A DNA stretch of 38,380 nt, taken from IMG/VR virus record IMGVR_UViG_2713897056_000005; one strand, 5' to 3'. Below the pieces are notes generated by a model that was not told the origin of the DNA, ran no database searches, and worked only from the letters and a program-made list of their open reading frames with translations. Shown here piece after piece: positions 14,288 through 37,139 of this stretch (position 1 is the first letter of the stretch; every line of letters begins with the position of its first letter). Source of the stretch: a virus (Duplodnaviria; Heunggongvirae; Uroviricota; Caudoviricetes). The translations under genes and the position numbers were made by a program.

Positions 14288-14889
14288 GGATTCACTCTCA
14301 TTGTGTCAATAACATGGACCGCCCCGCCTTCATGCGCGGTGCCGCCGGAAATAATTGTTTCGTTGATATACGGATAGATCGTGATTTCTTCGCCAAGATA
14401 ACTGGCGGCTCCCACCCAATGCGAACCGCTGGTCTGCAGATTGATGGACATGCCGATCATGTGACGGCTACATGGTTTGGCATCGCTTATCAGTCGCTCA
14501 AGTTCCAGATAGGTATCTTCAGTGATGCCCTGGTCCTGCACACCAATGTCCAGACGAAACGTGCCCGGTGTTTCTCCGGTCTGCCACCACTCAATAATGC
14601 GGATCAGGAAGCCGAACGGCTCCACCACCCGCCGTACGGCACTGGTGGTTCCTTTGTGCTGATGAATATAAAAAGCATCCTTCACTACCTGGCGTTTGAC
14701 GCTTTCTGTCCAGCCCTCGTCCCAGCGATCCACAGAGAACGCCCAGGCGAGATAAGGCAGGAAACTGACCGGACAGGTTGCCGGATTCCACAAGTCACGC
14801 AGTGACACCTGCAGATCAGAAATCCCGCTACAGGTTTGCGCCAGTCGGCGCTCCAGTGGCGTTGAACCCGGTGGCAGCAGACTATTCAT
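14284..14889 (-). CDS. I: Baseplate assembly protein I
   Basis: 201 aa; between J and H; stop abuts the H start. Confidence 0.8.
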   Translation of the reverse strand: MNSLLPPGSTPLERRLAQTCSGISDLQVSLRDLWNPATCPVSFLPYLAWAFSVDRWDEGWTESVKRQVVKDAFYIHQHKGTTSAVRRVVEPFGFLIRIIEWWQTGETPGTFRLDIGVQDQGITEDTYLELERLISDAKPCSRHMIGMSINLQTSGSHWVGAASYLGEEITIYPYINETIISGGTAHEGGAVHVIDTMRVNP

Positions 14890-15790
14890 CCGTTCCCCCG
14901 TTGGTCACGCTCCACTGCGTACATGATGCCGCCTGCGTTTTGTTCAGGACCACATCAGCCAGCGGTGAAGCCAGCTCCACACGTTGAACACCCTCAACAT
15001 GCAGCGCGGCAAAAATAGCACTACGGCGAATATCCCGACCGAGCCGCGTCTGACTGGCGATGTACCTCTGCAGGCTGACTTTTGCCGCTGCCATTACCGG
15101 CTCTGCTTCCGGTCCCGGATAAAGAAAAATGGTAGCTTCCACACGGTACGGGATGATTTCTGCGCTGCGAACCGTCAGACGGTCAGCCACCGGGCGGACG
15201 TTCTCACTGTTCAGGGCTTTCTCCACCACATCCAGCAAGTCTTTTTCTGCTGTTCCGTCGCCTTCACGACTCAGGACAGTCAGTACCACCTCTGCAGGTG
15301 CCGGACTGGTTGCACTGGCATCCGCCACCCGACCGTCGGCGCTTCGGGCATGAAATTCATAAGCGGCAGTTGGCCCCGCAACAGAAAGCCCTTCAAAGGC
15401 TGCAGGCACACGCAGGCGTAACGCTTCATCGCTTTCCATCACAGCCGCAACGGGTGGCACAGCGTCATTATCAGCAGGCGTCACCGTCAGGCGTTTCACG
15501 TTGTAGTTGGCAGCGAGCTGGTCAAGATCGCCGCCCATCGCGTAAGCCACCATCACAGCCTGCGCGGCTTCGTTAATGCGCTGGCGCAGAAGCAACTCAC
15601 GGTAAGCGTTCTCCTGCAGCAATTTGGTGACGGGTTCAGATTCCAGTTCCAGCGTGCGGATCACGGCTTCCTGCTCATCTTTCGGATGAAGCACCACAAA
15701 TTCGGCCTTGCGTTCGGCAAGCAGCGTCTCAAAGTCCGGCACATCGACAATCTGCGGCGCAGGCAACTGCGAAAGGTCAATCACTGCCAT
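14882..15790 (-). CDS. J: Baseplate assembly protein J
   Basis: Start set at MAVIDLSQLP (internal Met of the longer ORF), giving about 302 aa as in P2 gpJ. Confidence 0.8.
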   Translation of the reverse strand: MAVIDLSQLPAPQIVDVPDFETLLAERKAEFVVLHPKDEQEAVIRTLELESEPVTKLLQENAYRELLLRQRINEAAQAVMVAYAMGGDLDQLAANYNVKRLTVTPADNDAVPPVAAVMESDEALRLRVPAAFEGLSVAGPTAAYEFHARSADGRVADASATSPAPAEVVLTVLSREGDGTAEKDLLDVVEKALNSENVRPVADRLTVRSAEIIPYRVEATIFLYPGPEAEPVMAAAKVSLQRYIASQTRLGRDIRRSAIFAALHVEGVQRVELASPLADVVLNKTQAASCTQWSVTNGGTDE

Positions 15791-16136
15791 TCTCTGCTCC
15801 TGTTGATACGGAAAGGGAAACAGGCACACCGTTATTACGCCGCCCGGTCAGCCCCACCACCATTGAACCGTCAAAATTGCTGTTGATGGTGATGGAATCC
15901 AGCGTCAGCCGTGGCTCCCAGCGACTCAGCGCCACATACACTGCCGACATGACCTGCAGGCGTAATGCCGGATTTTGTGGCTGGTCTATCAGTGTCGACA
16001 GCAGGGAACCATATTCACGACGGGCAATGCGGCAACCCTGCGGTGTCAGCAGAATGTCCCGCACCGACTGACGCAGATGGTCAATATCAGTAATGGCTTT
16101 ACCGCTGGTATTGTTCATCCCGATATAAAGCGTCAT
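15777..16136 (-). CDS. W: Baseplate protein W
   Basis: 119 aa; gpW size and position between V and J. Confidence 0.8.
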   Translation of the reverse strand: MTLYIGMNNTSGKAITDIDHLRQSVRDILLTPQGCRIARREYGSLLSTLIDQPQNPALRLQVMSAVYVALSRWEPRLTLDSITINSNFDGSMVVGLTGRRNNGVPVSLSVSTGAENGSD

Positions 16137-16711
16137 ACCGGGCCTCCGGTTGTATCGCCGCCTTTCAGGACGCCAGTATGCTGATGCGCATCAACCACGA
16201 TCCCGTTAGAACTCATCGCTCCGCCGCCCTGGATAACGCCACCATTGATCACCACTTCGCTGTTAATGCGCGTGCGGTCAGCCTCCAGTACAAACTCACT
16301 GGTTTTCATAGTGATGTTGTCAGCGGCCTCAATGACCATTGATTTGATGCCCCTGACATACCAGCGCCCGGTGGCGGGTTCGTATTCAAACCAGCCACCG
16401 TCAGGATGTTCTGTCACGCAGGCGTCCGCCGACGTCGACGGTGGTGCGAACTGATTCGAATAGACAGCGGGCAGCGCAAAGGCGGTTTCCAGATTGCCGC
16501 CCAGACTCAGCAGCACCACCTGCTCACCTTCCGATGGTCGCCACCATGTGCGGGCATTCCCGGCACGCAGCGTCAGCCAGCTAATCCAGTTGGTTTCAAG
16601 CTCGCCCGTTTTCACCCGGCAAAGCCAGTTTTCCCTGTCCACTTCGGTGACTACCCCTGTGCGAATCAGGTTGGTGATAAGGCGCATGATTTCGGTTAAT
16701 TGTGCGTTCAT
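16133..16711 (-). CDS. V: Baseplate spike/assembly protein V
   Basis: 192 aa; P2 gpV position. Confidence 0.8.
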   Translation of the reverse strand: MNAQLTEIMRLITNLIRTGVVTEVDRENWLCRVKTGELETNWISWLTLRAGNARTWWRPSEGEQVVLLSLGGNLETAFALPAVYSNQFAPPSTSADACVTEHPDGGWFEYEPATGRWYVRGIKSMVIEAADNITMKTSEFVLEADRTRINSEVVINGGVIQGGGAMSSNGIVVDAHQHTGVLKGGDTTGGPV

Positions 16712-20024: not shown

Positions 20025-20675
20025 TCAGCGGCTGTCATTGCGCAGTCTGCGCTCCAGCTGCTGTTTGTCTTTTTTCACGCCACAGCGGGGATCGAGCTGT
20101 AACGCATGGTTGAGATGATTAAGGGCGGAAGCCGGGTTGCTTTCACTCAGGACAGCGCCAATCGCTTTATGCAGACGCGCCCGTGACTGGTCCGGCATAT
20201 CCAGACCGTCTGTCAGCTCCAGCGTCTGCAGCAACAGATCGGCATCAAAGCCGGTGGCGGCAAGCATTGCGCTCTGCGCCGCGTCTGCCATTTCCTCTGC
20301 CAGCACGGTCTGCACATTGCGATTACCCAGCGGCATCACCCAGCCATGACGCAGGGCATGACGCCCGATCTCCAGCGCCCCGGCATAATCTCCGGCATCA
20401 ATGCGCCACAGCATCACGTACATCAGCACGTCATCCTGTTGAGCGCCTCCGGCAGCCAGGACACCCTCTGCCCAGGCGACGTATTTCGGCAGCAGCTCCA
20501 CCTTGATTTCCGCTTTTTTGACCGTGGACTGAACGCCCTTGAGACGGCGGCGGTCTTCCGCCAGTTGCAGCAGCATCAGGTCATAGCCCGACGCGTGGCG
20601 AACACTGCCGCCCTCACGGGCGGCCTGTTCAGCCTGAACGCGCAGGCGATGCTGCCGTGCGGGACTCAGGCTCAT
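20025..20675 (-). CDS. M: Terminase endonuclease (small) subunit M
   Basis: 216 aa; order O-N-M-L. Confidence 0.8.
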   Translation of the reverse strand: MSLSPARQHRLRVQAEQAAREGGSVRHASGYDLMLLQLAEDRRRLKGVQSTVKKAEIKVELLPKYVAWAEGVLAAGGAQQDDVLMYVMLWRIDAGDYAGALEIGRHALRHGWVMPLGNRNVQTVLAEEMADAAQSAMLAATGFDADLLLQTLELTDGLDMPDQSRARLHKAIGAVLSESNPASALNHLNHALQLDPRCGVKKDKQQLERRLRNDSR

Positions 20676-20678
20676 GAA

Positions 20679-21737
20679 TTACGCTCCGGCTTCTGCTGCA
20701 GCGGCGCTGAAATCGCCAATCTGGATGTTTTCCACCAGTGCGGCGCAGCGGTAGTCCTCAACCACATAGGCTTCGTTAACGGATTCAAAGTTTTCAATCC
20801 GGTCACGTTTCGGGTTGTCGATAACTGAACGGCGGCGGGTGTCTTCCTGCCAGTAGATGGACAGGTTATCCAGGCGGGTGATCAGCAGCGCATTCGGCGG
20901 GAAGAACGGCGCACGCACGGCCTGCAGGCCCCCCATGCGTTTCTGACTGATGATCATATCGGCAGCCAGTTTTTCACTGTTTTCCTGCTCTTTGTTGACC
21001 AGCGGGAAATACTTGTCAGACAACAGTTCACGACCGCAAATCACCACCAGATCGTCATCGTCCTGGTAAACCACGTCGATAAGCTCATTGACCGCATCCA
21101 TCACCACAGCGTCCAGGTTGGCATATTCGCCACCTTTCCCGACTTTCACCGCACCCGGTGTGGTTTCACCGCCCGTGGTGGTACTGCCCATGACGTGATC
21201 CGGTGCATCCTCACGGATTTTCTGCAGCCAGCCTTTGTTCACATCCTGCAGCAGCGGGTTTTCGCTACGGTTGGAGGTTTTCGCACGCTTCACGCCGTTA
21301 AAGCCGATCATGATGCGGTCCAGTGCCTGACGTTTCACGATGGCGTTACGGATACGCACCTGGAAATCCTGAAACTTCGCCCACAGGTCCAGCTTCGCGT
21401 AGGTCAGCACCGTGTCAAAGTTGGTCTGCTCGCATTTATATTCCACATCGACCATCAGCGTCGGATCGACAGGCTCACGCTCTTTTGCGGTGGTATCAGT
21501 GGTTCCGGCAATGGTGCTGCCAACCCCCAGCCCCAGCAACTGCCCAGACTGCTCAGTCACTGGCGTGACGTTAATCAGCGTCAGGAAAGCGGCGGACTGC
21601 TGGATCTGGTCTTCCAGCGTCTGCTGTACAGACGGCTCCACGGTGAACTTGCTGGACAGTTCTTCAACTGCCACACCGTTCAGACGCGCCAGCTGCTGCA
21701 GGTAAGCGTTAAAAGCAAAGCGGGTATTCTTCTTCAT
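20679..21737 (-). CDS. N: Major capsid protein N
   Basis: 352 aa; P2 gpN size and position. Confidence 0.9.
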   Translation of the reverse strand: MKKNTRFAFNAYLQQLARLNGVAVEELSSKFTVEPSVQQTLEDQIQQSAAFLTLINVTPVTEQSGQLLGLGVGSTIAGTTDTTAKEREPVDPTLMVDVEYKCEQTNFDTVLTYAKLDLWAKFQDFQVRIRNAIVKRQALDRIMIGFNGVKRAKTSNRSENPLLQDVNKGWLQKIREDAPDHVMGSTTTGGETTPGAVKVGKGGEYANLDAVVMDAVNELIDVVYQDDDDLVVICGRELLSDKYFPLVNKEQENSEKLAADMIISQKRMGGLQAVRAPFFPPNALLITRLDNLSIYWQEDTRRRSVIDNPKRDRIENFESVNEAYVVEDYRCAALVENIQIGDFSAAAAEAGA

Positions 21738-21753
21738 CAGGTTTTGTGCTCCA

Positions 21754-22587
21754 TCAGCAATTGGTCAGAGTGTCAGCGGGGGCGTTACCGCCTGTTGCAC
21801 GCTGGCGGTAGTCCTGGCGGCTGTCTTCATGGCTCAGCTTATTCACCAGTTCGTTAAAGGCGGTTTGCTGCTCCTGCAGAGCAGTCTCCAGCTCAGACAG
21901 GCGTTCTTCCTGCTCAGACAGGGATTTTTCGGTGCGTGCGCTCAGGTTCTGCTGCTCAGTGGCGACCAGCTCCACGGCTTTATGCACATCAGAGAACCGG
22001 GCATCGTCTGACTGCTCTTTTTTGGTGAACAGCGCCGTGACGCGGGCAAACAGGGACGGTTTGTCATCCTGGATTTCTTCCAGTTCGATCACCGTTTCCT
22101 CTGCAGCGGTAAAGAGATTGGCGGGATTCTGCTTGCGGTTTGCCAGCGGGTTATGGGCTGCACTGGCGCTGAATGTCAGCATTTCCGTACCCAGACTGGC
22201 AGGGTCATCAGTGGCAGCCAGGCCGACCAGGTAGGCTTTGCCCGTATCAGCGAACTTCGGGCTGACTTCCATAGAGGTGAATAATTTCTGGCCTTTTTTC
22301 ACCAGTTCCACCAGGGACTCCGTTGGCTCAACATCGGCATACAGCGCCATCTTGCCTGCCAGCGGACCTTCCGTGATTTCTTCAGCAAACAGCGCCGTCA
22401 CCTTGCCGTAGCGGTTAAAGGTGCTGTCCGGCAGATAAGACTTGATGTGCTCAAGGTTAATCAGCGCGGTATACACCGCCGGGTTGTAGCTGGCTGCCAT
22501 CTGTTCCAGCCATTCACGCTGGATTTCGCGTCCGTCGGTGGTGGCACCTTCCACCCCGATGCGAAAACGCTTTGCTTTCACTGTCAT
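21754..22587 (-). CDS. O: Capsid scaffold protein O
   Basis: 277 aa; coiled-coil rich C-terminus; divergent from P. Confidence 0.85.
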   Translation of the reverse strand: MTVKAKRFRIGVEGATTDGREIQREWLEQMAASYNPAVYTALINLEHIKSYLPDSTFNRYGKVTALFAEEITEGPLAGKMALYADVEPTESLVELVKKGQKLFTSMEVSPKFADTGKAYLVGLAATDDPASLGTEMLTFSASAAHNPLANRKQNPANLFTAAEETVIELEEIQDDKPSLFARVTALFTKKEQSDDARFSDVHKAVELVATEQQNLSARTEKSLSEQEERLSELETALQEQQTAFNELVNKLSHEDSRQDYRQRATGGNAPADTLTNC

Positions 22588-22665
22588 GAGCCGTGCTCCG
22601 TTAGAAAAAACTTACTGGAGCCTTATGGTTGCGGTGATGGGGGCAGTGAAACAATGCGCGGTATT

Positions 22666-22683
22666 TGTACCGACAACCACACA
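22666..22683. promoter_or_regulatory. Candidate Ogr-dependent late promoter site (TGT-N12-ACA) in the divergent O/P control region
   Basis: tgtaccgacaaccacaca; 55 nt from the P start and 87 nt from the O start; assignment to PO or PP is ambiguous. Confidence 0.45.
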
Positions 22684-22729
22684 AACCGCAGGCGGGGAAA
22701 GCCTTCATTCAAGGCTGTAGGTTTGTGCC

Positions 22730-24499
22730 ATGAACACCACACTGACACCCGCAGATCTCGATCCCCGTCGGCAGGCCATGCTGCTGTACTTTCAGGGATA
22801 CCGCGTAGCCCGCATTGCTGAAATGCTGGGCGAGAAAGTTGCAACCGTTCACAGCTGGAAAAAAAACGCGACAAGTGGGGTGACTATGGGCCGCTGGATC
22901 AGATGCAGCTCACCACCGCCGCACGCTACTGCCAGCTCATTATGAAGGAGCACAAAGAAGGGAAAGATTTCAAAGAGATTGACCTGCTGGCGCGCCAGTC
23001 GGAGCGCCATGCGCGGATCGGCAAGTTTAACAATGGCGGCAACGAAGCCGACTTAAACCCTAACGTCGCCAACCGCAACAAAGGCCCGCGCCGTCAGCCG
23101 GAAAAGAACGTTTTCACCGATGAACAGATTGAGAAGCTGGAAGAAATCTTCCATTCCTCCATGTTCAACTACCAGCGCCACTGGTGGGAAGCCGGAAAAA
23201 CCAACCGCATCCGCAACCTGCTGAAGTCACGCCAGATCGGCGCGACCTTTTACTTTGCCCGTGAAGCCCTGATTGACGCCCTGCTTACCGGACGTAACCA
23301 GATTTTCCTTTCTGCCAGTAAGGCACAGGCTCACGTCTTTAAGCAGTACATCATAGACTTCGCCAAAGAAGTCGAGGTGGAGCTGAAAGGCGATCCGATG
23401 GTGCTTCCTAACGGAGCCACGCTTTACTTCCTCGGCACCAATGCCCGCACGGCCCAGAGTTATCACGGCAACCTGTATCTGGATGAATATTTCTGGATAC
23501 CGAAATTCCAGGAGCTGCGCAAAGTGGCTTCCGGTATGGCTATTCACAAAAAATGGCGACAAACCTATTTTTCCACGCCATCCAGCCTGACACACAGTGC
23601 TTATCCGTTCTGGTCCGGTGCGCTATTCAACCGTGGGCGCAACAAAGCCGATAAGGTGGACATCGACCTGTCCCACAGCAATCTGGCCCCCGGCCTGCTG
23701 TGCGCAGACGGGCAATACCGCCAGATAGTCACCGTGGAAGATGCGGTGCGCGGCGGCTGTAACCTGTTCGACCTTGACCAGTTGCGCATGGAGTACAGCC
23801 CGGACGAATACCAGAACCTGCTGATGTGCGAGTTTGTGGACGATCTCGCGTCCGTGTTTCCGCTCAGCGAGCTGCAGGCGTGCATGGTGGACAGCTGGGA
23901 AGTCTGGACCGACTTTCATGCACTGGCGCTGCGCCCGTTTGGCTGGCGCGAGGTGTGGATCGGTTATGACCCGGCAAAAGGTACGCAGAACGGCGATAGT
24001 GCCGGATGCGTGGTGGTGGCTCCGCCAGCCGTGCCGGGTGGTAAGTTCCGCATTCTTGAGCGTCACCAGTGGCGCGGGATGGACTTCCGCGCCCAGGCTG
24101 ACGCCATCAAAAAACTGACCGAACAGTATAACGTGACCTATATCGGCATCGACTCGACCGGCGTCGGTCACGGGGTTTACGAGAACGTGAAAGCGTTTTT
24201 TCCTGCCGTCAGGGAGTTTGTCTACAACCCCAACGTTAAAAAACGCCCTGGTACTCAAGGCCTACGACATTATCAGCCACCGCCGTCTGGAGTTTGACGC
24301 CGGGCACACCGACATTGCGCAGTCATTTATGGCAATCCGTCGCGCTACCACTGCCAGTGGCAACCGCCCGACCTATGAAGCCAGCCGCAGCGAAGAAGCC
24401 AGCCATGCCGATCTGGCCTGGGCAACAATGCACGCACTGTTTAACGAACCGCTGCAGGGCGAATACGCCAATACCAGCAATATTGTGGAGATTTTTTGA
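22730..24499 (+). pseudogene. P: Terminase ATPase (large) subunit P, reading frame broken twice at homopolymer A runs
   Basis: Three consecutive ORFs in different frames (22730..22945, 22903..24297, 24218..24499) together give a continuous terminase-like protein; breaks at A8 (22859..22866) and A6 (24238..24243). Confidence 0.75.
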
Positions 24500-25533
24500 T
24501 GGGAAAGAGTAAGAAGAACCGAGCTGCGGCGACGAAACAGATCCAGCTTAAAAGTCAAACTACAGCCGAAGCATTCAGCTTCGGCGATCCCGTTCCTGTT
24601 CTGGACCGCCGTGAACTGCTGGACTATGTGGAATGCGTACAGATGGACCGTTGGTATGAGCCGCCCGTCAGCTTTGACGGACTGGCGCGCACCTTCCGCG
24701 CCGCCGTGCATCACAGTTCCCCGATTGCAGTAAAGTGCAACATTCTGACCAGTACCTATATCCCTCATCCGCTGCTCAGCCAGCAGGCTTTTTCGCGTTT
24801 TGTGCAGGACTATCTGGTATTTGGTAACGCCTACCTGGAGAAACGCACGAACCGATTCGGTGAAGTTATCGCTCTTGAGCCTGCGCTTGCAAAATACACC
24901 CGACGCGGATTAGACCTGGATACCTACTGGTTTGTGCAATACGGTATGACAACCCTGCCGTATCAGTTCACGAAAGGCAGCATTTTTCATCTGATGGAAC
25001 CGGACATCAACCAGGAGATCTACGGCCTGCCCGGTTATCTTTCTGCCATTCCGTCAGCCCTGCTCAACGAGTCCGCCACGCTGTTCCGCCGCAAGTATTA
25101 CATTAACGGTAGCCATGCAGGCTTCATCATGTATATGACCGATGCCGCGCAGAACCAGGAAGATGTGAACAACCTCCGCAACGCAATGAAAAGCGCCAAA
25201 GGCCCTGGCAACTTCCGCAATCTGTTTATGTACTCGCCTAACGGCAAAAAGGACGGACTTCAGATTATCCCGTTGTCAGAGGTCGCAGCGAAAGATGAGT
25301 TTTTGAATATCAAGAACGTGAGTCGGGATGACATGATGGCAGCACATCGTGTGCCGCCGCAAATGATGGGGATTATGCCGAGTAATGTTGGGGGGTTTGG
25401 GGATGTGGAGAAAGCCAGCCGCGTCTTTGTTCGCAACGAGTTGATACCTCTGCAGAAGCGCCTTCAGGAATTGAACGACTGGCTTGGAGAAGAAGTCATG
25501 CGTTTTGAAGATTATAATTTAGGTATTGAATGA
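24496..25533 (+). CDS. Q: Portal protein Q
   Basis: 345 aa; directly after P; P2 gpQ size. Confidence 0.9.
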   Translation: MMGKSKKNRAAATKQIQLKSQTTAEAFSFGDPVPVLDRRELLDYVECVQMDRWYEPPVSFDGLARTFRAAVHHSSPIAVKCNILTSTYIPHPLLSQQAFSRFVQDYLVFGNAYLEKRTNRFGEVIALEPALAKYTRRGLDLDTYWFVQYGMTTLPYQFTKGSIFHLMEPDINQEIYGLPGYLSAIPSALLNESATLFRRKYYINGSHAGFIMYMTDAAQNQEDVNNLRNAMKSAKGPGNFRNLFMYSPNGKKDGLQIIPLSEVAAKDEFLNIKNVSRDDMMAAHRVPPQMMGIMPSNVGGFGDVEKASRVFVRNELIPLQKRLQELNDWLGEEVMRFEDYNLGIE

Positions 25534-25540
25534 TATTTAA

Positions 25541-25570
25541 AAGCCTGTACAAACAGGCTTTTATTCTTTA
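25541..25570. terminator. Hairpin plus T-rich tract between convergent Q and cargo operon (likely bidirectional terminator)
   Basis: agcctgt-acaa-acaggct followed by a T-rich tract (ttttattcttt). Confidence 0.5.
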
Positions 25571-25602
25571 GTTTAAAATCACCAAGACATGAGCATTAAA
25601 AC

Positions 25603-26268
25603 TTAAAGATCCGGATCTACAGGCTCATGATATAGATTTACAGGGTAATGAATAACTTCATAATTCAGTTGAGTAACTGTGTGAACATGCTGGCTATAAA
25701 AAACCAATGGATTTTTTTGACAAGGAGTAATCGTTATAGATTTACAGGCATGAATTCTTGGTGCGAATTTATCTAAATGCGCCTTCCAGTTGCTCATCAT
25801 TTCATTACATTTTCTATTACGAGTATAGATAATCAATCCACCACTTGCGCTGTCTACGGTCCCTGTACTATATCGTTCAGTGAGTTGAGCATACCCTTTA
25901 AATAAATAACTATATGAAGATGTATGTTTTTTGGCTTCGCCATGCCAAATATAATCCTTTAGTTTTATTGTAATATCACAATGTCCGCGCTGATTATTTT
26001 CATGAAATGCTTCAATGCCCATATCTTTATTTTTGATATTGGCCAATAAAATTAAAGTAAGCTGATCTTCTGTTAAATCGAAGTTTAACTTATTTGAATT
26101 CTCTTCTATTTCCTTTACAGCAGAATCAAGTTCAATCCTGACAAATTGTTTGAAATTATCGTACGATTGAAGTGCAAATCTAACACGAGTAATAGAAGCA
26201 TTAATACGCTGAAGAAAAATATCATTATCAATATCAGCCAAACTCATTGCTGCAGACATTTTTAACAT
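25603..26268 (-). CDS. Hypothetical protein, gene 3 of AT-rich cargo operon; possible PD-(D/E)xK-like nuclease motif
   Basis: 221 aa; start ATG overlaps the stop of the upstream gene (TGATG); segment GHCDITIKLKDYIWHGEAKK fits a D...ExK pattern (weak). Confidence 0.5.
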   Translation of the reverse strand: MLKMSAAMSLADIDNDIFLQRINASITRVRFALQSYDNFKQFVRIELDSAVKEIEENSNKLNFDLTEDQLTLILLANIKNKDMGIEAFHENNQRGHCDITIKLKDYIWHGEAKKHTSSYSYLFKGYAQLTERYSTGTVDSASGGLIIYTRNRKCNEMMSNWKAHLDKFAPRIHACKSITITPCQKNPLVFYSQHVHTVTQLNYEVIHYPVNLYHEPVDPDL

Positions 26269-26702
26269 CAGATAATATCCTTTGATTTAGATTCATCTAA
26301 TGTAAAAAAAGGAAATACGAATGACTTATAGTCATACATAAGCTCCCCTGTAAATGGGTTTACTAAAGATTGACTGATTTCCGCCTCAATAACTTCCTCT
26401 ATTTCAAGTTCTACAGGGTCATGAAAATCATCAATGAACCAATAATTGAGTTTTAAAAAATCAACCTTTGGGCTACAAAGAATTTGTATGGCCGGATAGA
26501 TAACCTGCTCATACGTTTCTGGCTGTAAAACCTTATTATAACCACCAGCTATATTAAATAAATCCTTATAACTTAAAGCTATATTTGATGATTTTTTAGC
26601 CCTTGCCTCGATTTCATCGTACAAATAGCAAGCTAACGCCCCAATTTCAGGGCGTTCTGCACACATTTCTTTGATGATCTTGGGCATATCACCATCCTTC
26701 AT
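26268..26702 (-). CDS. Hypothetical acidic protein, gene 2 of cargo operon
   Basis: About 144 aa from the ATG at 26702 with GGAG Shine-Dalgarno; Asp/Glu-rich. Confidence 0.5.
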   Translation of the reverse strand: MKDGDMPKIIKEMCAERPEIGALACYLYDEIEARAKKSSNIALSYKDLFNIAGGYNKVLQPETYEQVIYPAIQILCSPKVDFLKLNYWFIDDFHDPVELEIEEVIEAEISQSLVNPFTGELMYDYKSFVFPFFTLDESKSKDII

Positions 26703-26714
26703 TGCTGACTCCAA

Positions 26715-27821
26715 TTATAATATCAGCTTTGTGAGGGTTTCGAAATCATCTTTGGATATACATTTACTTAATATAGCATAGTTAACAGGAGAGCAACTAC
26801 TCCCTCCTAGATGCCTGCGGAGTGTTCCCGGAATGATAAGCTCTACGTTATCCGCTAATTGCAGTTTTGGATTATTTCTATCAACTCTAATTCCAATACG
26901 ATACAAACCAATACTGCCTACTGCTTTGATGCCTTCCTTATTAAACAAATCATCACGTAAGTCTTTAGTGGCCACATTTTTCTTTTCTTTATGCGTAGTC
27001 CCCTCATTCGTCAAAAATGACAAATCAAAGACTTTATAGCTTAATTTTGAATAAGGCAATGAATTTTGTTTGAAAATTGGCTCAATTAACGGATAAAAAT
27101 CTTTTTCCGATGATTTAAATTCATAACCGACATGATTATACAATTCACGAATAATGTTACTCTTTGCAAAAGTAACATTATCACCAATAATATTACCATT
27201 AGTATCTACCAAAACATGAATTTTATTAGTAACAGAGTCTAATATACAGACATCAAAACATTGTCGCTTTTCTTTTCGCTTTGCAATAATTTCATCAAAC
27301 TGCTTGTATTGCGCAAGTGCTGACGGGGGAATTTTTTCTCTTACAACTAATTCTCTGACAGATGAAAAAACAAGTATTGACTGGGTGTTTTGAATAGAAT
27401 AATTAACAAGTTCAGGTTGATTTTTTACAGCATTTTGCAATTGGACATCATCAAGGATCGAATCAACCAATAATGATGGTTGATTCATCAAATTCCATTG
27501 AAAACTAAATCTGTCATTTAGTGTTTTAATTACACTATTATCTACAGTCAAACTAAATATTGCTTTTTCACCATAAACGACCTGACCAAAAATTAGGTCA
27601 TTTACGTTTGCCATAATGCCATCAAACTTTTGCCTATCTTTACTTTTAAGATCAATGAGGCTTTCTAGTATTTTTTCGTTTGTTGCTTCACGCCCCCTAC
27701 CTGTTGGCAGCCCTAAAGACGCAATAATTGGCCTTGCAACGTTCCATGTGAAACGTTCAGTTAAGGTCAAGATCGACTTTAACTCAGACTCAGAAAGCAC
27801 TACTGGGACACTACCTGTCAT
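26715..27821 (-). CDS. Hypothetical protein, gene 1 of cargo operon
   Basis: About 368 aa from the ATG at 27821 with AGGTG Shine-Dalgarno (a GTG at 27830 is an alternative start); no recognisable ATPase or other motif. Confidence 0.5.
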   Translation of the reverse strand: MTGSVPVVLSESELKSILTLTERFTWNVARPIIASLGLPTGRGREATNEKILESLIDLKSKDRQKFDGIMANVNDLIFGQVVYGEKAIFSLTVDNSVIKTLNDRFSFQWNLMNQPSLLVDSILDDVQLQNAVKNQPELVNYSIQNTQSILVFSSVRELVVREKIPPSALAQYKQFDEIIAKRKEKRQCFDVCILDSVTNKIHVLVDTNGNIIGDNVTFAKSNIIRELYNHVGYEFKSSEKDFYPLIEPIFKQNSLPYSKLSYKVFDLSFLTNEGTTHKEKKNVATKDLRDDLFNKEGIKAVGSIGLYRIGIRVDRNNPKLQLADNVELIIPGTLRRHLGGSSCSPVNYAILSKCISKDDFETLTKLIL

Positions 27822-27980
27822 AACTTGCACCTAGTCATCCAAAAAGCAATAAGAATTTGCTCTTGTCTTAATTTATCCTTCGATACCTAACAAATTACCT
27901 CAATGTTGAAAAAATTTGCAAGCCATTTGCTTCTAAAAAGCGACCTTACTCAGAGTGTTACAAAACTAAGCGAGCGCGCG

Positions 27981-27999
27981 CTCGTATCCCCGCCACGCC
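27981..27999. other. cos-like cohesive-end site
   Basis: Reverse complement GGCGTGGCGGGGATACGAG; the first 13 nt match the P2/186 cohesive-end sequence as I recall it; sits in a 720 bp non-coding stretch. Confidence 0.5.
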
Positions 28000-28020
28000 T
28001 GCCCGCTTTATGCAGTGATT

Positions 28021-28123
28021 TTCATGCACCTGCATGACATAAGCGAAAGCCCGCCAGTTCTGGGGGGCCTCAGCAAAAACGATCCTCAAACGATCATGCA
28101 ATTTCATGCAGCATAGTCATGCA
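28021..28123. repeat. Cluster of short CATGCA repeats adjacent to cos (possible terminase binding sites)
   Basis: CATGCA at 28023, 28095, 28105 and 28118 plus an inverted TGCATG at 28031. Confidence 0.35.
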
Positions 28124-28552
28124 CAGCCAAGAGAAGTGAAAATCCGTATCTGAATGACCACTTAAAAAACGAAATATACGGGTTTACAAACATGGAGGTT
28201 CACTGTGAGCGAAGAGCGGAAGTTGCCTTAATTAGGTTACATGGGGGACAAATGTTACTAGCATGATTATGCGGGATACTTACAATACCACGCCTTAATT
28301 GCTTTGTTATCCCACCAGAAAGTCATGGAGCCGCAACTGATAAGAAAATTGTTGTAAAAGTGCCAGTTGGTTACTCTGAATTTCTGCTTAGCCAGGAGAG
28401 TGCCTGCGTTGTCAGCGAATGCGTAAGTTGATCCTTCAATGCAGAAATAGTTCAATTTATTAAACAACACTCCTGGCGGGATTAACGCCGCATCTATAAT
28501 GCGTGAGAGTGTGCATGCGCAATTTCAGCAAAAAAAATTGAAAATAGCGCTA

Positions 28553-29525
28553 CTAACTTCCCTTTATTTTTAGTTCGTTAAAAATATCTTCGATTACCAA
28601 TCCATTTTTAATTAAATGCTGCACAATATTTTCATATTCTTTGAAATTGTCAATATGCAAGCCATGATCTTTTTCTTTAGCAATTCTCGTGATCACATGT
28701 ACGCTATCTGTATAATCAATCTTATTTTTAAGAGCATTGAGCAAACTTATACTTGGATTTAAAGTTGAGATTAGTTTACCAAACTCGGTTTGTAACTCTT
28801 TGGATTGATGAGTATTAATATAATCTTCAATAAAAGCATCAAAATCTCCTTGCAACTCAACTTTAAGGTTTGCTATATCCTTCATAATATTTTCTAACTC
28901 AGAAGAGTATGGCCGACCATGTTTAAAATCGAATAAAAAAAGATTTGCTTTCTCAATACATTCGCAAATATAAAAAACTGTATAAAGGGAATATTTTTGC
29001 TTAACTTTTAATTTTCCATAGGCGTAGTGAACCAAAAGATGCTTAGCATTAATAACATTTTTATTTTTTGAAAGTTGATTGTTAGTTGCAGGCGGATAAA
29101 TTACCACATCAACATTATCTAAATTTTGAAAAGTTTTTAAAATAAGAGCCTCAACCTTATTCCAATCGAGGCCCCCATTACCACAGCCTAAAGGTGGTAT
29201 TGATATTGATGTAATTTTTTTTTTCATCTATAATTTTTGCTAAAGATTCAAGGCCTTGCGAGATAAAATCATATGTTGATTTTTTTCTCCAACTATCTTT
29301 AGTGGGAAAGTTTACAATTATTTTTCCCTTTTCCTCTACAATTAAAACCTGTCCAATTTTCATTGTACCAGTGGCGCATGCTCTCTTATAAACTTCGAAA
29401 TTATAGGGAAAAGTTTCTTTAAAAGCCAAAGCAATACCCTTTCCCATGACTCCTTGGCAGTTTACAGCATTCACAAGAGCTTGCGATGTAGAGTTTAGAA
29501 GATTTCCGCTTGCATACTTAATCAT
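28553..29525 (-). pseudogene. darG: DarG-like macrodomain antitoxin, split into two ORFs at an A10 tract
   Basis: 29178..29525 encodes the macrodomain N-terminus (ALVNAVNCQGVMGKGIALAF) and 28553..29227 continues it (SIPPLGCGNGGL) plus a C-terminal domain; frames switch inside the A10 run at 29215..29224. Confidence 0.65.
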
Positions 29526-29529
29526 AGAA

Positions 29530-30111
29530 TTAGAACATATAAGTGTTGATCGTTATCAATATACTTAATCCTTGTTGTTTTATCAACCCTTCAACATATT
29601 TTTTTTCGTTATCATTTTTGACAAAGATGCAATGGAAATTTTTCGGCTCGACCGTTACACTTGATAAACACTCAGCCATACATACAGATTTGCATTCTGC
29701 ATTTTTATAATCCCTTATATTCATTAGCTCCCAGTCAATTTGGGCCATTCCTTGTTCATAATCTAAGAGGTCTATAACAGAACTGGTGGATAATGGATGT
29801 TTAGGGATAACTTTCCAACCATTTTCTTTGGCAAATGCCCGACAAACCGAAATAATACAAAATGATTTTTCCTTATGATCTTTCAGGACTCTTCCATCAA
29901 ATGGATTCTTAGTAAAGAAATGAAAAGGAACCATTGTTTGCAAATTTAATGCTTCGCGACCTGTTATTATTTCACCGTCGGCCACATCAACAAACTCACC
30001 TTTTACTGATGCACGAGATCTTAATCCTGTATCTAAAATACTAGGTAGATTATCCATACATGTTAAATGATAGAGAAGATACTGATCTTCAATTCTTTTC
30101 CTTTCGCTCAT
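29530..30111 (-). CDS. darT: DarT-like DNA ADP-ribosyltransferase toxin (DUF4433 family)
   Basis: N-terminal LLYHLTCMDNLPSILDTGLRSR matches the DarT signature as I recall it; 193 aa; 4 nt upstream of the macrodomain gene; GGATGA Shine-Dalgarno. Confidence 0.65.
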   Translation of the reverse strand: MSERKRIEDQYLLYHLTCMDNLPSILDTGLRSRASVKGEFVDVADGEIITGREALNLQTMVPFHFFTKNPFDGRVLKDHKEKSFCIISVCRAFAKENGWKVIPKHPLSTSSVIDLLDYEQGMAQIDWELMNIRDYKNAECKSVCMAECLSSVTVEPKNFHCIFVKNDNEKKYVEGLIKQQGLSILITINTYMF

Positions 30112-30578
30112 TTCAACTCATCCTTTCAAATTCGTAAGTCTATTTATAGAACCAAACCTCACTGGCAGTCAAGGTTTTTAAGATTATTCACATTGCCTTC
30201 TGCCTGTCGATCTAATTATTTTCGATTTTTTGGGTATGATTTGGCATTATTGATATACAAGGTAAAACAATTTTTCAGTAGTTTACTGACGCTGAGTGAT
30301 TACGATAGCTAGCTTGGGAAGGAAATGGCCATAGTGCATGTGCTGAACAAAATGAAAAAGGCAGGGACATTCTGGTCTTCCCCATGAGTATGGATTTTCA
30401 TTGCATCGATGGGTATGAGCAACGTCCCCTTGATTAAGGATAGCGTTGCATCGACCCGTTGAACTCACAACACAAATCGTACAATCACTTATCAAAATGG
30501 CCGCCCACCTTACGCCTCGTTTCACTCGCTACCCAAACTAGCCCCCATCAGAATGAATCCTCCTGGGGGCAATGTTTC

Positions 30579-30812
30579 TTAATGCAGCCAGCTGTCGTCC
30601 TCCCACACCTTCTGCATAATTTTCATCACTTGTTTTCTTTCTTCATCCAGTTGCAGTCCGGTTAGTTCCACACCGTTAGAGCTACCTTTGCGAATGCGAA
30701 TTACCGTTTTGGGATACAGGGGGCGCAGATTGCGGTAAAGCTCGGATTCAAGGGCGTCCAGGGTAGACTGGCTAATCTTCTGCTCTTTATCGATCATTAT
30801 TTCAATGCGCAT
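30579..30812 (-). CDS. DinI-family protein (possible C-terminal domain of a Tum-like antirepressor)
   Basis: MRIEIMIDKEQKIS...VWEDDSWL resembles DinI; the longer ORF to 30884 and upstream frames may be part of the same gene. Confidence 0.65.
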   Translation of the reverse strand: MRIEIMIDKEQKISQSTLDALESELYRNLRPLYPKTVIRIRKGSSNGVELTGLQLDEERKQVMKIMQKVWEDDSWLH

Positions 30813-31054
30813 AAAAGTCACCTCAGCTGATGACATCCATTGAGCGGTTGTATTCGTGGCTTCTGATTTTTGCCATGAGTTCATCTGTCAGTTCAGAAAC
30901 CCACTGCAGAGCCAGCCCTTTCTCTTCATCACTACACTCACTAGCCGCTACAAGCTTAAGAAAAAAAATCAATGCGCTGGAGCTTCAAAGACTCCAAAAA
31001 ATAGTCCTGCATCTTTCCTCCTATGACACCAAAGCAATACTGTATACATAACCA

Positions 31055-31070
31055 CTGTTTATATTTACAG
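31055..31070. promoter_or_regulatory. LexA (SOS) box
   Basis: CTGTTTATATTTACAG, a perfect CTGT-N8-ACAG; lies upstream of a GGAGGA-ATG (31012) and the DinI-like gene on the minus strand. Confidence 0.6.
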
Positions 31071-31167
31071 TATATAATAATCTTACTGATGTAAAACGTT
31101 TTTTTTTTACGTTCATCAGCCTGATATGCCTAGTATTATTAAGAGCACGAATTGTTAACCCGCGTAA

Positions 31168-33582
31168 TTAATACAGATCCCGCCACTTATCATCTTCCTG
31201 CAAACGCTGGTTCCGATAGAAGATACGCAGGCCTGCTCCTGACGGAATACTGCCACCGCGAAGGAGTAAATCGACCTCTTTCTCGCTTCCATCAAATCCT
31301 CTGGACTTCAGTTCATAGACGAGCTGCTGTCGCTGATGATCTGTAATTCGCTGTTTGTAGTCTCTACGCCGTTTCGGTTTCACCAGGCGTAACCTTGCAG
31401 CCAGTTCCCGGCGCTCTTTTTTGTTCATACTGTGCAGGTAATCGTGCAATTCCTTGTCATCCATGCAGGTGATATCCGTTCTGGTATCCCCATCAGCTGA
31501 TTTGTCTTTCCCTTGTTGGTACAAATTTTCAGCAAGGGGACAGTTATTGCCACGAGTCCAAGGGGCGCAAGCGCCCTGGTCGGCTGCCGCCTCCTGAACG
31601 TCAACGGCTTTACGAACCATTTTCCACTTCACTGCATGAGTGCAGATCTTGCCCTCTGCAATGGGTGACCAGATGCCATAAATACGAATGCCGTGATCGC
31701 CATAGGCGGTCGGCTCTTCGTTGATTTCATAAGCGGTTCTGATGAGGTGATATTTACGGGGAACCAGTACGCCGCCCTGCTTCATGATGTAGGTGGCAAA
31801 ACAACCAGCATCAGCAGCAGCCAGGATGGCATCAAGGCGCGGGTTATCCAGTACCGGCGCACCTGCTTTTTTGTCCCCCTTTTGCCTTACCGCCTGACCA
31901 GCCAGCAATCGCAGTTCACGGTAAGCCTGACGCCCCGGAATGCCAAAGAAGCGGAATTGCTGAACACGATGCAAAGACGCCCAGGCATTCACGTATTCAG
32001 CGTTATCACGCAGAGATTTACCCGTTTCCTTGCTGATCTCGCCAGCCAGACCACGCCCGTCAATGTTCTTACTGATGTATTTCGCTATGTAGCTTGTCGG
32101 CGTTCCTTTGCGCGGGTTAATCAGCTCAGACTTAAAGCGCGGCCCCGTGTTATTGCCCAGCTCCTCGCGGTCTTCACGGATAGCAAACTTACGCAACAAT
32201 GCTGTAATGGCGCGGCGGTCTTTTTTGCGCATGAAACACAACAGGTGCCAGTGAACTGTGCCGTCGTGATGCGGCTCAGCCACCCGCACGCCATACCAGC
32301 GCAACCCGGCTTTGTGCATCGCCTTACGAAATGCAGCAAACATACCGACCAGATAATCGCTGCTTTGTCTTACCGTCGCATTTGTCCAGGTCGGGTTGGG
32401 CCTGCCGTTATTTAGCGTGGAATGGAAACGTGACGGACAGGTGATGGTGTAGAAAACGGCGCAGTCACCGCGCATTTCCGCGATAAGCTCCAGACCTTTA
32501 ACACAGGCCATCATCTCATTGCGGCGATGCGCAGGGTTGCTGCTGCTGGCGTTTACCACATCCTCCATGTCTAGCGTGTCGCCGTCTTCGTTCACCAGTT
32601 CATGAGAACGGAAAAACTCCAGCGACTTACGGCGCTGCTCACGTTTATGCAACACGGCTTCATAGCTGACATAGGGAGATGCTTTTTTGCTGACAAGGCA
32701 GACAGCACGCAACTGCTCTTCCCGCCATTCGCAACGCATCTTCCATAATTTCCGATACCACCAGTCGGCGCACAACATACGCGCCAGCGAACCCGGAATG
32801 AGTTCATAGGGCACGGGTTTACGGCGGTTTCTTTTCCGACGGAGTTGCTCAAACGCAGGCGGGATGACATCCAGACGCAGGGTTTCCGCTGCCACCCTTT
32901 CCCATGTATTGCGGATTTCTTCTGGCTTAACGTCATCGGTGGCATACAAATCGCCACAAGCGGCATCAAGGCACATACTCATATGCGCAGCTACCAGGGT
33001 GGACAGGCGTTTCACCTGATCCTGACTCATTTCAGGCAGGATCAGCAGGCCGTCCAGCCCTTCATGGCTTGCCATAAAGCGAAAAGATGCAGATAGCTGA
33101 CTGTCGCGTACATGCTCCAGTCGTTCCAGACATGGCTTAATCGTCTCACGTAAATAGCGGGAATAAGCCTTTGGCCTGCCCAGGCTGCTGAAGTATTCAA
33201 TACGTTGCATCAGCGGCTTGCTGATATGGGAAGGCTGGGCGTTGACGTCCGCCAGAATGACCATATCCGGATTAAAACGCTGCTGCTCATGCGCCAGCTT
33301 TGCCCGACTAATGAGCTTATCCTGTTCCATTTCGCGCTGGACAGGATCACGGGATTCATTAAAGAAATAACGCTCCCAGACCTGATCACTCAGCGCCTCA
33401 CGGCGCAGCTGTTCCTGCTCGTTATCGGCAGCGTACAGAGTGATCAGGTTTGAAAGCGTAGAAACCGGCGCAACTTCCACCGGGTCCAGATAAGGGTTAA
33501 TGGCCTTTTTCGAGCTGTTCCATGAGAACGATGCGGCAGCTTCGTTAAAGCCGCAGCAGTTGTTCATATCGGCATGACTCAT
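31168..33582 (-). CDS. A: Replication initiation endonuclease A (rolling-circle initiator)
   Basis: 804 aa; last gene of early operon; P2/186 gene A size class. Confidence 0.8.
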
Positions 33583-34436
33583 GCACGTACTCCGTACACG
33601 GCAGAACTATCCACGCCACGCGAATAATCAAATCCCACCCAGCAGCGCGGCCCGGAAACAGCAATGATTTCTGTTGCTGATTTACCCTCGCCAGCTGCCA
33701 CACCGATGCTGCGTTTTGCCTTGATGTAGTGGTGAGTAAAATTGCGATACAGCGAACGGATCAGGGATGTGTCACTGTTAGAAACAATGACCGGATGTCC
33801 TTCTGATAACCGATGTTCAAGAACAGATGCCAGGTGATACTGGTCATCTTCAGTGAAGCCGTCAGTGTGATAGCCGGAAAACGTACCGTCATACGGCGGA
33901 TCGCAATACACCACATCCCCCGCCTTCAACATCGCCAGCGTTTCATCAAAGCTGGCGCAGATAAACGTTGCTCGCTGGGCCTTTTCTGCAAATGCGCGAA
34001 TTTCTTTTTCAGGGAAATATGGATTTTTATAATTACCGTAGGGAATGTTGAAATGCCCGCTCTTGTTATAGCGACATAAACCACGGTAACCGTGACGATT
34101 GAGATACAGGAAATATACCGCTTTCATGAAATCAGTAATTTCAGTTGAGTAATTAAACTCCTGCCTTATATTGTAATAAGCCACCTCCCTGTTTGCGATC
34201 TCAAATAAAACTCTGGCGCGAGATATAAACGATTCACAATCAGCGGCAACCTTTTTATAGAGGTTGATTAAATCAGGATTAATATCCGCAACCAGATAGC
34301 TGGGATAATCCGTCTCCATCATCACAGCACAGGAACCCGCGAAAGGTTCAACCAGTCGCGGGCCAGCAGGAAGATGTTTTTTTAGTTCGGACATTATGGC
34401 AGTTTTATTTCCCGCCCATTTCAGGATGGTGCTCAT
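33579..34436 (-). CDS. dam: DNA adenine methyltransferase (Dam family)
   Basis: N-terminus [11 protein letters not shown] and catalytic DPPY motif ([10 protein letters not shown]); start set at internal Met. Confidence 0.85.
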
Positions 34437-34660
34437 ACAGCACCTCCGTTGTAATGTTTGCCTTTCAGCTCTGCGATTTCCTGACAGGTAATGCAAAGCT
34501 GCACACCCGGAATGGCACGGCGGCGTGCTGGCGGAATTGGCGCTTCACACTCAATGCAAAGCACGCGGGACACGCCCGGCGTTTTGGCACGGGCAGCACG
34601 GATATGGCGTTGGCGTTCTTCTTCAACGCGCTGCTGTACGAGATCCATTGCATCAGCCAT
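34433..34660 (-). CDS. TraR/DksA-family C4 zinc-finger protein
   Basis: 75 aa; CxxC-N17-CxxC (CIECEAPIPPARRRAIPGVQLCITCQ). Confidence 0.7.
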   Translation of the reverse strand: MADAMDLVQQRVEEERQRHIRAARAKTPGVSRVLCIECEAPIPPARRRAIPGVQLCITCQEIAELKGKHYNGGAV

Positions 34661-34899
34661 TAGTGGATCTCCTGCGCTTCGTTCTGGATTGCTTCAGCAG
34701 TCACACGAAGCAGTTCTGCCGCTTCGACGTGGGTTAGCTGGCGGGATGTGATATGACACGCCAGGCTATCAAGGCGAGCTGCCATTGCTTCAGCCCTTGC
34801 CCGGCGTTCTTCCAGACGAGCCTCTGTCAGTAAAATATTAAGCCCTGCGTCATCCGGTCCGGTTTTGGTCGAGAGGGTTTCAATATTACGCATAATCAA
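34660..34899 (-). CDS. Hypothetical early-operon protein
   Basis: 79 aa ORF tightly packed in the early operon. Confidence 0.4.
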   Translation of the reverse strand: MIMRNIETLSTKTGPDDAGLNILLTEARLEERRARAEAMAARLDSLACHITSRQLTHVEAAELLRVTAEAIQNEAQEIH

Positions 34900-34960
34900 T
34901 TCTCCTGAATTTAGATAAAGGGATGCCCGGCGGGTTTACGCCATTAATTTCATTAGTTGG

Positions 34961-35302
34961 TTAATTCGGCATGGTTAGCCGTCTGGGAAATAAGCTCACC
35001 ACTGCACGAAAATGATTCATTGCTTTAATCAACTCCCGCTTTTCGTCAGTGGTCAGCTCATTAATGCTGATGCTATGACGTTCAGCTGGAATTTTTGCCA
35101 TAAAGAATATGGCAGCCAGTGCCCGTTTATTTTGTTCGCTATTAATATCCCGTGAATCACGCATATCTTTAATAAACCGCTCAAGCTCTGACTCAATATT
35201 CAGGCCAAAAACTTTCGCCCTTAACTCCGCAATGTGATTAAGTCCATTCAGGCGTTCACCGGGGCTTAATGGAACAGTCGCCGCAGTGCCTTCAATAGCC
35301 AT
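34961..35302 (-). CDS. Hypothetical early-operon protein
   Basis: 113 aa ORF in the early operon. Confidence 0.4.
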   Translation of the reverse strand: MAIEGTAATVPLSPGERLNGLNHIAELRAKVFGLNIESELERFIKDMRDSRDINSEQNKRALAAIFFMAKIPAERHSISINELTTDEKRELIKAMNHFRAVVSLFPRRLTMPN

Positions 35303-35466
35303 TTGTTCCCCCGTTTTTTCGTAGATAGTTCTGCCAGCAATTCATCTTGTGAACGGCACGGATGCCAGCGTTTACCATCCTCCCCCATGATCCAGCCGTG
35401 ACCGTAATGCATTGCCGGGCTTTGTTTAACCAGCAGCGATGCAAATGATGGTTCTTTCGTCAGCAT
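35266..35466 (-). CDS. Hypothetical early-operon protein
   Basis: Start chosen at MLTKEPSF to avoid overlap with cII; weak. Confidence 0.3.
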   Translation of the reverse strand: MLTKEPSFASLLVKQSPAMHYGHGWIMGEDGKRWHPCRSQDELLAELSTKKRGNKWLLKALRRLFH

Positions 35467-35473
35467 AAGCACC

Positions 35474-35989
35474 TCACAGCAAACCAAATGAAGCACCGAG
35501 GCCAGTCACGGTATCAACTGCACTCGCCATCGCAGGATTAGCCTGTAAACGGGCCTGCAATGAAACAGCCGCCAGCGCCATCAGTCGTGTTACAGAGTTA
35601 ATGCTGCTGATAGCATCACGACGACCGGCACAGGTTTTTACATCGCCAGACACCGCACCTGCAGCAACACGCCCGATCTCTGCGGTTGCACTCATGACGT
35701 AATGTGGCAGTTTCTCTTTTGCCACCTCATTAATCGGTACACATGGCAGACAATGAATCTGTGCCAGAAAACCATCTACCAGCGTTGAATCTTCAGTCAG
35801 ATCGGTAAGCAGCCAGATTTCTGGTGCGGTTAATAAATGAGGCTGAGCTGGGTTCAGCTTGTTCCGCAGAATCTGCACATTCATGCCTGCACGTTCTGCC
35901 AGTTGCACCAGATTGTGGCGCAGTGCAAATGCACGACAGGCTTCATCAAAATGTGGATGTTTGGAAACTTGGTAATCAAACATGGTCAA
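35474..35989 (-). CDS. cII: CII-like lysogeny establishment activator (phage 186 CII family)
   Basis: [20 protein letters not shown]...LNPAQPH...[25 protein letters not shown] closely resembles 186 CII from memory. Confidence 0.7.
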
Positions 35990-36015
35990 TGCCTCTGATG
36001 TATTTCAGAATCGAA

Positions 36016-36237
36016 CTAATTAAGGTTTAGATTGCATTCTGAAAGCGCATCAACGGTCATTGCTGCTATGTTGATCATCACTTTTTCGCGTTTTTTATCT
36101 TTGCGCAGACGGTGACGGATAAGGCGTCCATCAGCCAACATGTCATTGATGGTATCGATGGATAGCCCTGTCAGCTCGCTATAGCGTTCAATAGTCACAT
36201 GAGGCGTGGTAAGAGTGATTGAAATGTTAGGTCTCAT
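36016..36237 (-). CDS. apl: Apl/Cox-like small DNA-binding excisionase and switch repressor
   Basis: 73 aa, first gene of the lytic operon, divergent from cI; GAGGA Shine-Dalgarno. Confidence 0.5.
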
Positions 36238-36356
36238 GATGCAACATTCCTCGTTTAATGATGATTAATCAGGACGAATACGGATCGTTTGTATTTTGTG
36301 AACACCATAAACATACGATCGCACGGTGAAATCGTCAAGATAAAAGTTCACTTGGA
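36238..36356. promoter_or_regulatory. Lysis-lysogeny switch region (lytic and lysogenic promoters and operators)
   Basis: 119 bp between divergent apl and cI; individual promoter hexamers not confidently assignable by eye. Confidence 0.5.
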
Positions 36357-36932
36357 GTGACCATGAATTTGGAGAAAGGCGGACGAGGCGCCATAGAGCG
36401 CATGGTAGAAGCTTATGGATTCAAGACTCGACAGGCGTTGTGCGATCATTTAGGAATCTCTAAAAGTACACTCGCCACACGCTACATGCGTGACTCATTC
36501 CCAGCAGAATGGGTAATCCAGTGCGCCCTTGAAACAGGCACCTCGCTTAATTGGCTCACAACCGGGCATGGTTCAAAGCAAACTTCAGGTAATACAAATA
36601 CTATGGAAGTTGCTAAATATGTATTATCTGATGGGGCCTTGTGTGAAGACGGTTTTTATATTTTCGATAGAGAATTTCTACCGTCGGCATTCAAGAATCT
36701 TTTTGTAATCACAGATAATAATTCTGAATTTATTTGTGATAAGGAATTTGATGATATACGTGATGGTAAATGGGTAATAAGTATTGATGGCGAAATAACG
36801 ATCCGTGACATTACTCGTTTACCCGGTGGAAGAATCTTCGTCGAGGGTGGAAACAGAGCCTTTGAATGTAAGATAGAAGACATTGAAATAATTGGTAAAA
36901 TTATAAGTTTAACAGTCAAGTATGTTAAATAG
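36357..36932 (+). CDS. cI: Immunity repressor (186 CI-like)
   Basis: 191 aa; N-terminal HTH region (EAYGFKTRQALCDHLGISKSTLATRY) and C-terminal LPGGRIFVEGG resemble 186 CI from memory. Confidence 0.7.
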   Translation: MTMNLEKGGRGAIERMVEAYGFKTRQALCDHLGISKSTLATRYMRDSFPAEWVIQCALETGTSLNWLTTGHGSKQTSGNTNTMEVAKYVLSDGALCEDGFYIFDREFLPSAFKNLFVITDNNSEFICDKEFDDIRDGKWVISIDGEITIRDITRLPGGRIFVEGGNRAFECKIEDIEIIGKIISLTVKYVK

Positions 36933-36947
36933 TACCGGGAGGAAATT

Positions 36948-37139
36948 ATGCTTGGTAAGGTATTTTTTGTGGTTTTGTCATGTTCTTTGTTATTAAACCC
37001 ACTAGCTACCTATGCTAGAAATTATCCCTGCTCAGGGAAAAAGGGAGGTGTTTCTCACTGTACCTCTGATGGCAAATTCGTTTGCAATGATGGAACTATT
37101 AGTAAATCCAAAAAAATCTGTACTAAAAACTCACGATAA
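36948..37139 (+). CDS. Small secreted cysteine-rich protein (candidate lysogenic-conversion moron)
   Basis: 63 aa; signal-peptide-like N-terminus ([23 protein letters not shown]) and four Cys in the mature part; between cI and int on the lysogenic transcript. Confidence 0.4.

Follow-up and report, generated by a model that had tools for sequence, protein, structure and literature searches.

The toxin-antitoxin systems of the DarTG2 class, described in Thermus aquaticus, M. tuberculosis and E. coli, pair a DarT toxin with a macrodomain antitoxin, DarG, and in them thymidine is ADP-ribosylated reversibly. The antitoxin has an N-terminal macrodomain, with a catalytic lysine (K80 in T. aquaticus) and a glycine-rich loop, followed by a C-terminal region, and darT precedes darG. 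A locus of this kind is found in the window, as the whole 38,380-nt stretch of viral DNA analyzed here is called, where the antitoxin gene is written as two reading frames, meeting in a run of ten A. Genes of similar appearance, rescued by transcriptional slippage at 9A or 9T, were described by Baranov et al. (2005) as pseudo-pseudogenes: a +1 indel in a long A run interrupts an otherwise intact gene, which has single-ORF orthologues in other strains (PMC1088944). Both traits are shared by the window gene, which differs from that group because the sequencing platform is the best explanation of its extra base, and because rescue would need a -1 or +2 change. The split of darG is very probably not biological: the true sequence would contain A9, and the tenth A would be a homopolymer over-call of an Ion Torrent PGM/MIRA assembly.

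The features of the operon, as read in the window, are listed below.

29530..30111, minus strand: darT, intact, 193 aa; predicted ssDNA ADP-ribosyltransferase toxin (ORF, Pfam and PADLOC)
28553..29525, minus strand: darG as restored with A9, 972 nt, 323 aa; predicted N-terminal macrodomain and C-terminal DarT-binding region
29178..29525, minus strand: darG 5' fragment, as written, 115 aa, made of 102 native residues and a 13-residue out-of-frame tail NYININTTFRLW
28553..29227, minus strand: darG 3' fragment, as written, a 224-aa ORF, whose ATG arises from GAT-GAA directly before the run
29215..29224, minus strand: A10 run (T10 on the plus strand), the apparent frameshift site; A9 in relatives
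30183..30210, minus strand: weak promoter-like site by consensus match alone (TCGACA, 16-nt spacer, AATAAT), 72 nt upstream of darT

The product of darT matches the Pfam DarT family PF14487 (E 9.2e-22, profile positions 1-199 of 201) as well as the PADLOC DarT profile (E 2.2e-36), and exactly the same 193-aa protein is present on 744 contigs, as found by exact-sequence look-up. DarT homology had been named as a check by the initial annotation, whose identification of a DarT/DarG pair with an intact toxin gene is therefore supported; the order darT then darG is also as it had described, with the correction that both genes lie on the minus strand. The two genes are adjacent, with a 4-nt gap between the stop of darT (29530) and the ATG of darG (29525). 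The 5' fragment of darG matches the Pfam Macro family and positions 1-104 of the 329 positions of the PADLOC DarG profile, while the 3' fragment covers positions 102-314 of the same profile (E 3.5e-28). Since the two ORFs hit consecutive stretches of one DarG profile, and the frame switches exactly within the run, where the interruption had already been placed, the arrangement is not a chance one. As had been proposed, nine A give one ORF, although its length is 323 aa (a CDS of 972 nt in relatives) and not about 338 aa. In the GenBank annotation of the source contig the 3' part of darG is reported as a 184-aa version with a GTG start. The G+C content of the operon is 32%, versus 50% for the window. 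A promoter scan returned 10 sites versus 8.4 expected from shuffles, which is not significant, and a terminator scan of the region found none.

The restored DarG was aligned to proteins of known structure. Over residues 1-148 it aligns with the DarG macrodomain of M. tuberculosis (PDB 5m3i, E 2.6e-43; also 5m31), and in the alignment to 5m3i both the catalytic lysine (K76, in the motif PTK) and the PPLGCGNGG loop are conserved. The frame break falls inside the macrodomain and not at the border of the two domains, after this lysine and before the loop, and A10, as literally written, cuts the domain at residue 102. The sequence similarity of the window DarT to the sole solved relative, 7omu, is distant (E 1.4e-4); E147 of the window DarT (CMAECL) is aligned with an alanine of that chain (MAACL), which suggests that the crystallized protein may be a catalytic Glu-to-Ala mutant. 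The DarT domain, the gene order, the two macrodomain elements (if the run is A9) and a C-terminal region with similarity to the DarG profile, which is predicted to bind DarT, are thus common to the window locus and to DarTG2 systems, and with an A9 run no difference of substance is left in a locus known here from its sequence. Judged by family membership, it is an ordinary DarTG2-type toxin-antitoxin and phage-defence operon. Its DarT would ADP-ribosylate thymidine in ssDNA; the DarG macrodomain would undo this modification, and DarG would additionally bind DarT.

The length of the run was examined in relatives by comparing window positions 28400..30300, by megablast, with 5,426 complete E. 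coli genomes. The locus is present in 10 of them, always at an identity of at least 99.3%, and in all 10 a single intact macrodomain CDS is annotated. T9 (A9 on the coding strand) was found in each of the 9 genomes fetched and aligned, and the tenth shows the same match length. In the alignment of the locus to that of the prophage of strain S40, the window shows only two inserted bases, one in the intergenic A run at 28530 and the other in the darG run. A9 and one 323-aa DarG are also found in 8 of 8 near-identical IMG/VR prophage loci, and one ORF is found in 4 more diverged IMG/VR loci (88-90% identity), examined at the run.

The same picture emerges from an exact look-up in a protein collection with about 15 billion entries. 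Intact 323-aa DarG variants are present on 365, 105, 98 and 38 contigs, and a 297-aa call of intact DarG on 116, for a total of 722 counts, within which 323-aa and 297-aa calls may overlap, versus 3 contigs for the products of A10. An 89-aa product of the window is found nowhere but on the window's own contig; the 224-aa product of the darG 3' fragment is absent from this collection, as are the products expected from A6, A7, A11 and A12. No match to the darTG operon was found in a phage genome collection. A 184-aa call in GCA_005395625.1 was considered as evidence of a frameshift and rejected, as that contig ends inside darG before the run.

Ion Torrent chemistry is prone to homopolymer-length errors. 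Contig JNNL01000042.1 (GCA_000749545.1) corresponds to window positions 20553..37107, being 100.000% identical over 16,555 nt, and JNNL00000000 is the genome of isolate P, a STEC O91:H21 pork isolate sequenced by Ion PGM at 36x coverage and assembled by MIRA (PMC4192381). The window was compared with the S40 prophage over 38 kb. The comparison showed 4 substitutions outside an inversion boundary, 4 mismatches at that boundary, and seven indel sites, all seven in A or T runs. Six of the seven are extra bases in the window (+1, +1, +1, +1, +2 and +3), clustered within 8.3 kb (22859..31108), as listed below. Since the contig and the window are aligned with no mismatch or gap, all six over-called runs are also carried by the contig.

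22859..22866, plus strand: A8 versus A6 in relatives; private over-call, frameshifts the terminase ATPase gene
24238..24243, plus strand: A6 versus A5 in relatives; second private over-call in the terminase ATPase gene
28530..28537: A8 versus A7 in 12 of 12 relatives; intergenic, just downstream of darG
29215: T10 versus T9 in S40 and relatives; darG, +1
30961..30968: A8 versus A7 in 11 relatives; frameshifts a 62-aa gene between gpA and a DinI-like gene
31099..31108: T10 versus T7 in 11 relatives; intergenic, +3

At the five sites outside darG, all the relatives covering each of them (3 to 12 loci) agree with S40, and the window is the lone outlier. The terminase ATPase gene (22730..24499, plus strand) is split by its two over-calls, at 22859 and 24238, into three ORFs; the 62-aa gene, annotated as intact in relatives, was not called as a gene in the source contig. 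Ion Torrent and 454 draft assemblies typically contain indels that are restricted to homopolymers, increase with the length of the run, occur in one assembly only and disrupt several genes with no relation to one another; the window shows the same pattern, with no difference noted. The seventh indel, the sole apparent under-call, is a T5 versus T6 in S40 at 2770..2774, intergenic after ybjL, and was compared with S40 only.

Two other origins of these indels were considered and rejected. Errors in S40 instead of the window are contradicted by up to 12 independent relatives, which side with S40 at each site checked. A mismatch-repair mutator lineage does not account for six insertions out of seven indels, two of them of +2 and +3 and all six clustered in 8.3 kb, and is also ruled out by just four accompanying substitutions outside the inversion boundary and by the Ion PGM data.

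Of the three readings offered by the initial annotation, a homopolymer sequencing error is thus the one favoured by the data, given the Ion PGM source, the five other private over-calls and the A9 run of every complete genome with the locus, and we infer A9 for isolate P itself. In order to weigh error against mutation, two frequencies were compared: 4 of the 16 window runs with a true length of at least 7 are miscalled (about 25%), while about 0.5% of relatives carry a +1 or -1 allele. With the darG run being the longest in the region, these values translate into odds of about a hundred to one for error. The length of the run cuts both ways, as error and real slippage are both likeliest there, and the artefact is rated as very probable, short of certainty.

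The evidence against an artefact comes from other assemblies. The 115-aa A10 product is found on two contigs from other strains, with haplotypes different from that of the window and different neighbouring cargo. Between the Logan assembly SRR27204173 and strain Br_178_kylling, A10 versus A9 is the sole difference over 14,930 nt, and darT of the former is wild-type; the same extra A is the sole difference between GCA_020051355.1 and strain LR-46 over 1,843 nt. The other runs of at least 7 look clean in both (14 in SRR27204173 and 5 in GCA_020051355.1), so that of the 3 contigs with A10 one is an Ion PGM product and two are apparently clean. Predicted A8 products are also on record, of 111 aa on 2 contigs and of 85 aa on 1. 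A literature search for JACWCP, SRR27204173, SRR14141755 and SRR17734920 found nothing. In the SRR27204173 contig, a portal fragment is joined directly to the baseplate J, gpD and ogr genes (14532..16484); this prophage is a remnant, which cannot form virions, and retains darTG and a PDDEXK_GAPS4 cassette.

Given the two clean A10 assemblies, a real A9-to-A10 mutation at the darG run is possible in principle. Isolate P would then truly carry a replication-slippage allele, and the lysogen would survive by low or repaired DarT, or by slippage or ribosome sliding yielding some full-length DarG. In favour of such an event, beside the A10 and A8 products, runs of 9 A or 9 T slip readily during transcription and are hypermutable when replicated (PMC1088944). 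Against it, the assembly is an Ion PGM one, its five other private over-calls include a +2 and a +3, which are rare from real slippage, intact products prevail by far in the protein collection, and both Logan contigs with A8 show further homopolymer deletions nearby, indicating noisy reads. Also against it, rescue of A10 would take a -1 or +2 transcript, whereas slippage at A/T runs, analyzed genome-wide in E. coli, consists mainly of single-base insertions, with less than 1% of deletions starting in homopolymers (PMC5574713); at the ribosome, by our reading of the frames, it would take a +1 shift and not the common -1. A true A10 allele in isolate P is consequently judged improbable.

The probable over-call in the window leaves aside the alleles of other isolates, where rare real +1 or -1 alleles of the nine-base run are plausible, without changing the verdict on the window. 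A stronger form of this idea, regarded as rather unlikely, is that the A9 run is hypermutable in this darG lineage, and that the A10 of SRR27204173 and GCA_020051355.1, together with the NCBI A8 products, are real. Lysogens would then survive with a wild-type darT and a frameshifted darG, perhaps via slippage or ribosome sliding giving a trickle of catalytic DarG. If true, this would be an accidental yet reversible dosage switch on a toxin-antitoxin defence, in other isolates and not in the window. A modest question, namely how a lysogen tolerates an intact DarT with a frameshifted DarG, would arise only if reads confirmed the A10 and A8 alleles of these few other, cleaner assemblies.

The initial annotation had also suggested that the C-terminal fragment of DarG is translated on its own and neutralizes DarT by binding; macrodomain activity would then not be needed. 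The 3' fragment does contain the whole of the C-terminal region (PADLOC DarG positions 102-314). Inspection of the window sequence, however, found no Shine-Dalgarno-like sequence upstream of either candidate start (ATG, 29227; GTG, 29107), and the ATG is absent on the GAC haplotypes that also show A10. As the 224-aa product is missing from the protein collection, and the frameshift is most probably an artefact, a free-standing fragment is considered very unlikely.

The remaining suggestion, slippage or frameshifting as an antitoxin supply, started from the statement that A/T runs of nine or more cause RNA polymerase slippage, which holds for bacteria (PMC1088944). The run was examined in more distant homologues. 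It is interrupted in three homologues of about 90% identity, which read GAAAGAAAAA, with GAA AGA AAA encoding E-R-K-I; Klebsiella and Enterobacter homologues (proteins on about 200 contigs) also read ERKI (GAAAGAAAAA). E-K-K-I is kept in one 88% homologue and in a Serratia protein, and the run is absent from a 44% homologue. The G+C content of darG is 31%, with AAA used for 26 of 36 lysine codons and GAA for 13 of 20 glutamate codons; with this usage, E-K-K-I would give A9 in about one case out of three, and the run is what AT-rich codon usage would be expected to give. Since neither the split arrangement nor the run is conserved, the site does not qualify as a functional slippage site in the sense of Baranov et al. 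(PMC1088944). A programmed recoding site, in which a conserved slippery sequence would set the ratio of truncated to full-length DarG and make the antitoxin tunable, can be practically discarded: A9 and A10 runs can slip in E. coli, and this one lies inside a gene whose dosage matters, but relatives have a single ORF, and the run is neither conserved nor unexpected from codon usage. More generally, a frameshift seen in a single draft, in a long homopolymer, calls for a check of platform and close relatives before recoding is invoked; for the window darG, both point to an artefact.

The operon lies within a P2-like prophage, whose integration site is between ybjL and rcdA. According to the main text of Rousset et al. 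2022 (PMC9122126), the cos-proximal gpA-gpQ locus of P2 (old/tin) is a hotspot of anti-phage systems; that main text makes no mention of DarT, macro or DUF4433. In the window, darTG sits between the same two genes, beside a second variable cassette.

24496..25533, plus strand: portal gene gpQ, one boundary of the hotspot
31168..33582, minus strand: replication endonuclease gene gpA, 804 aa, the other boundary

In related prophages the neighbours of the same darTG are different: an AAA ATPase, an AIPR protein, a STAS-like pair or a PDDEXK_GAPS4 set. The window darTG is therefore cargo of the gpA-gpQ defence hotspot, and both the system and its location are of kinds already described.

The second cassette of the window hotspot is composed of three abutting, co-oriented ORFs of 221, 148 and 371 aa (25603..27830, minus strand), also found in S40, RM10809-3 and 2022CK-00450. 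They match PHROG families of unknown function (phrog_9664, 11490 and 12777, E 4e-86 to 6e-129), with no PADLOC match and no significant Pfam match, and represent a candidate uncharacterized defence cassette. Downstream of darG, at about 28290..28395, a 108-nt remnant of an IS5/IS1182 transposase is present in nearly all relatives, which suggests that the darTG module was once mobilized with, or beside, an IS element. In 2022CK-00450 an IS1A is found just upstream of darT (NZ_CP104681.1, locus positions 4866..5563, corresponding to about 30250 in the window), possibly separating the operon from its promoter. Elsewhere in the prophage, a 1.8-kb tail-fibre segment (11411..13251), adjoining a gene of the recombinase (invertase) family, is inverted with respect to S40; it is a host-range inversion switch of the P2/Mu type, found in the other orientation.
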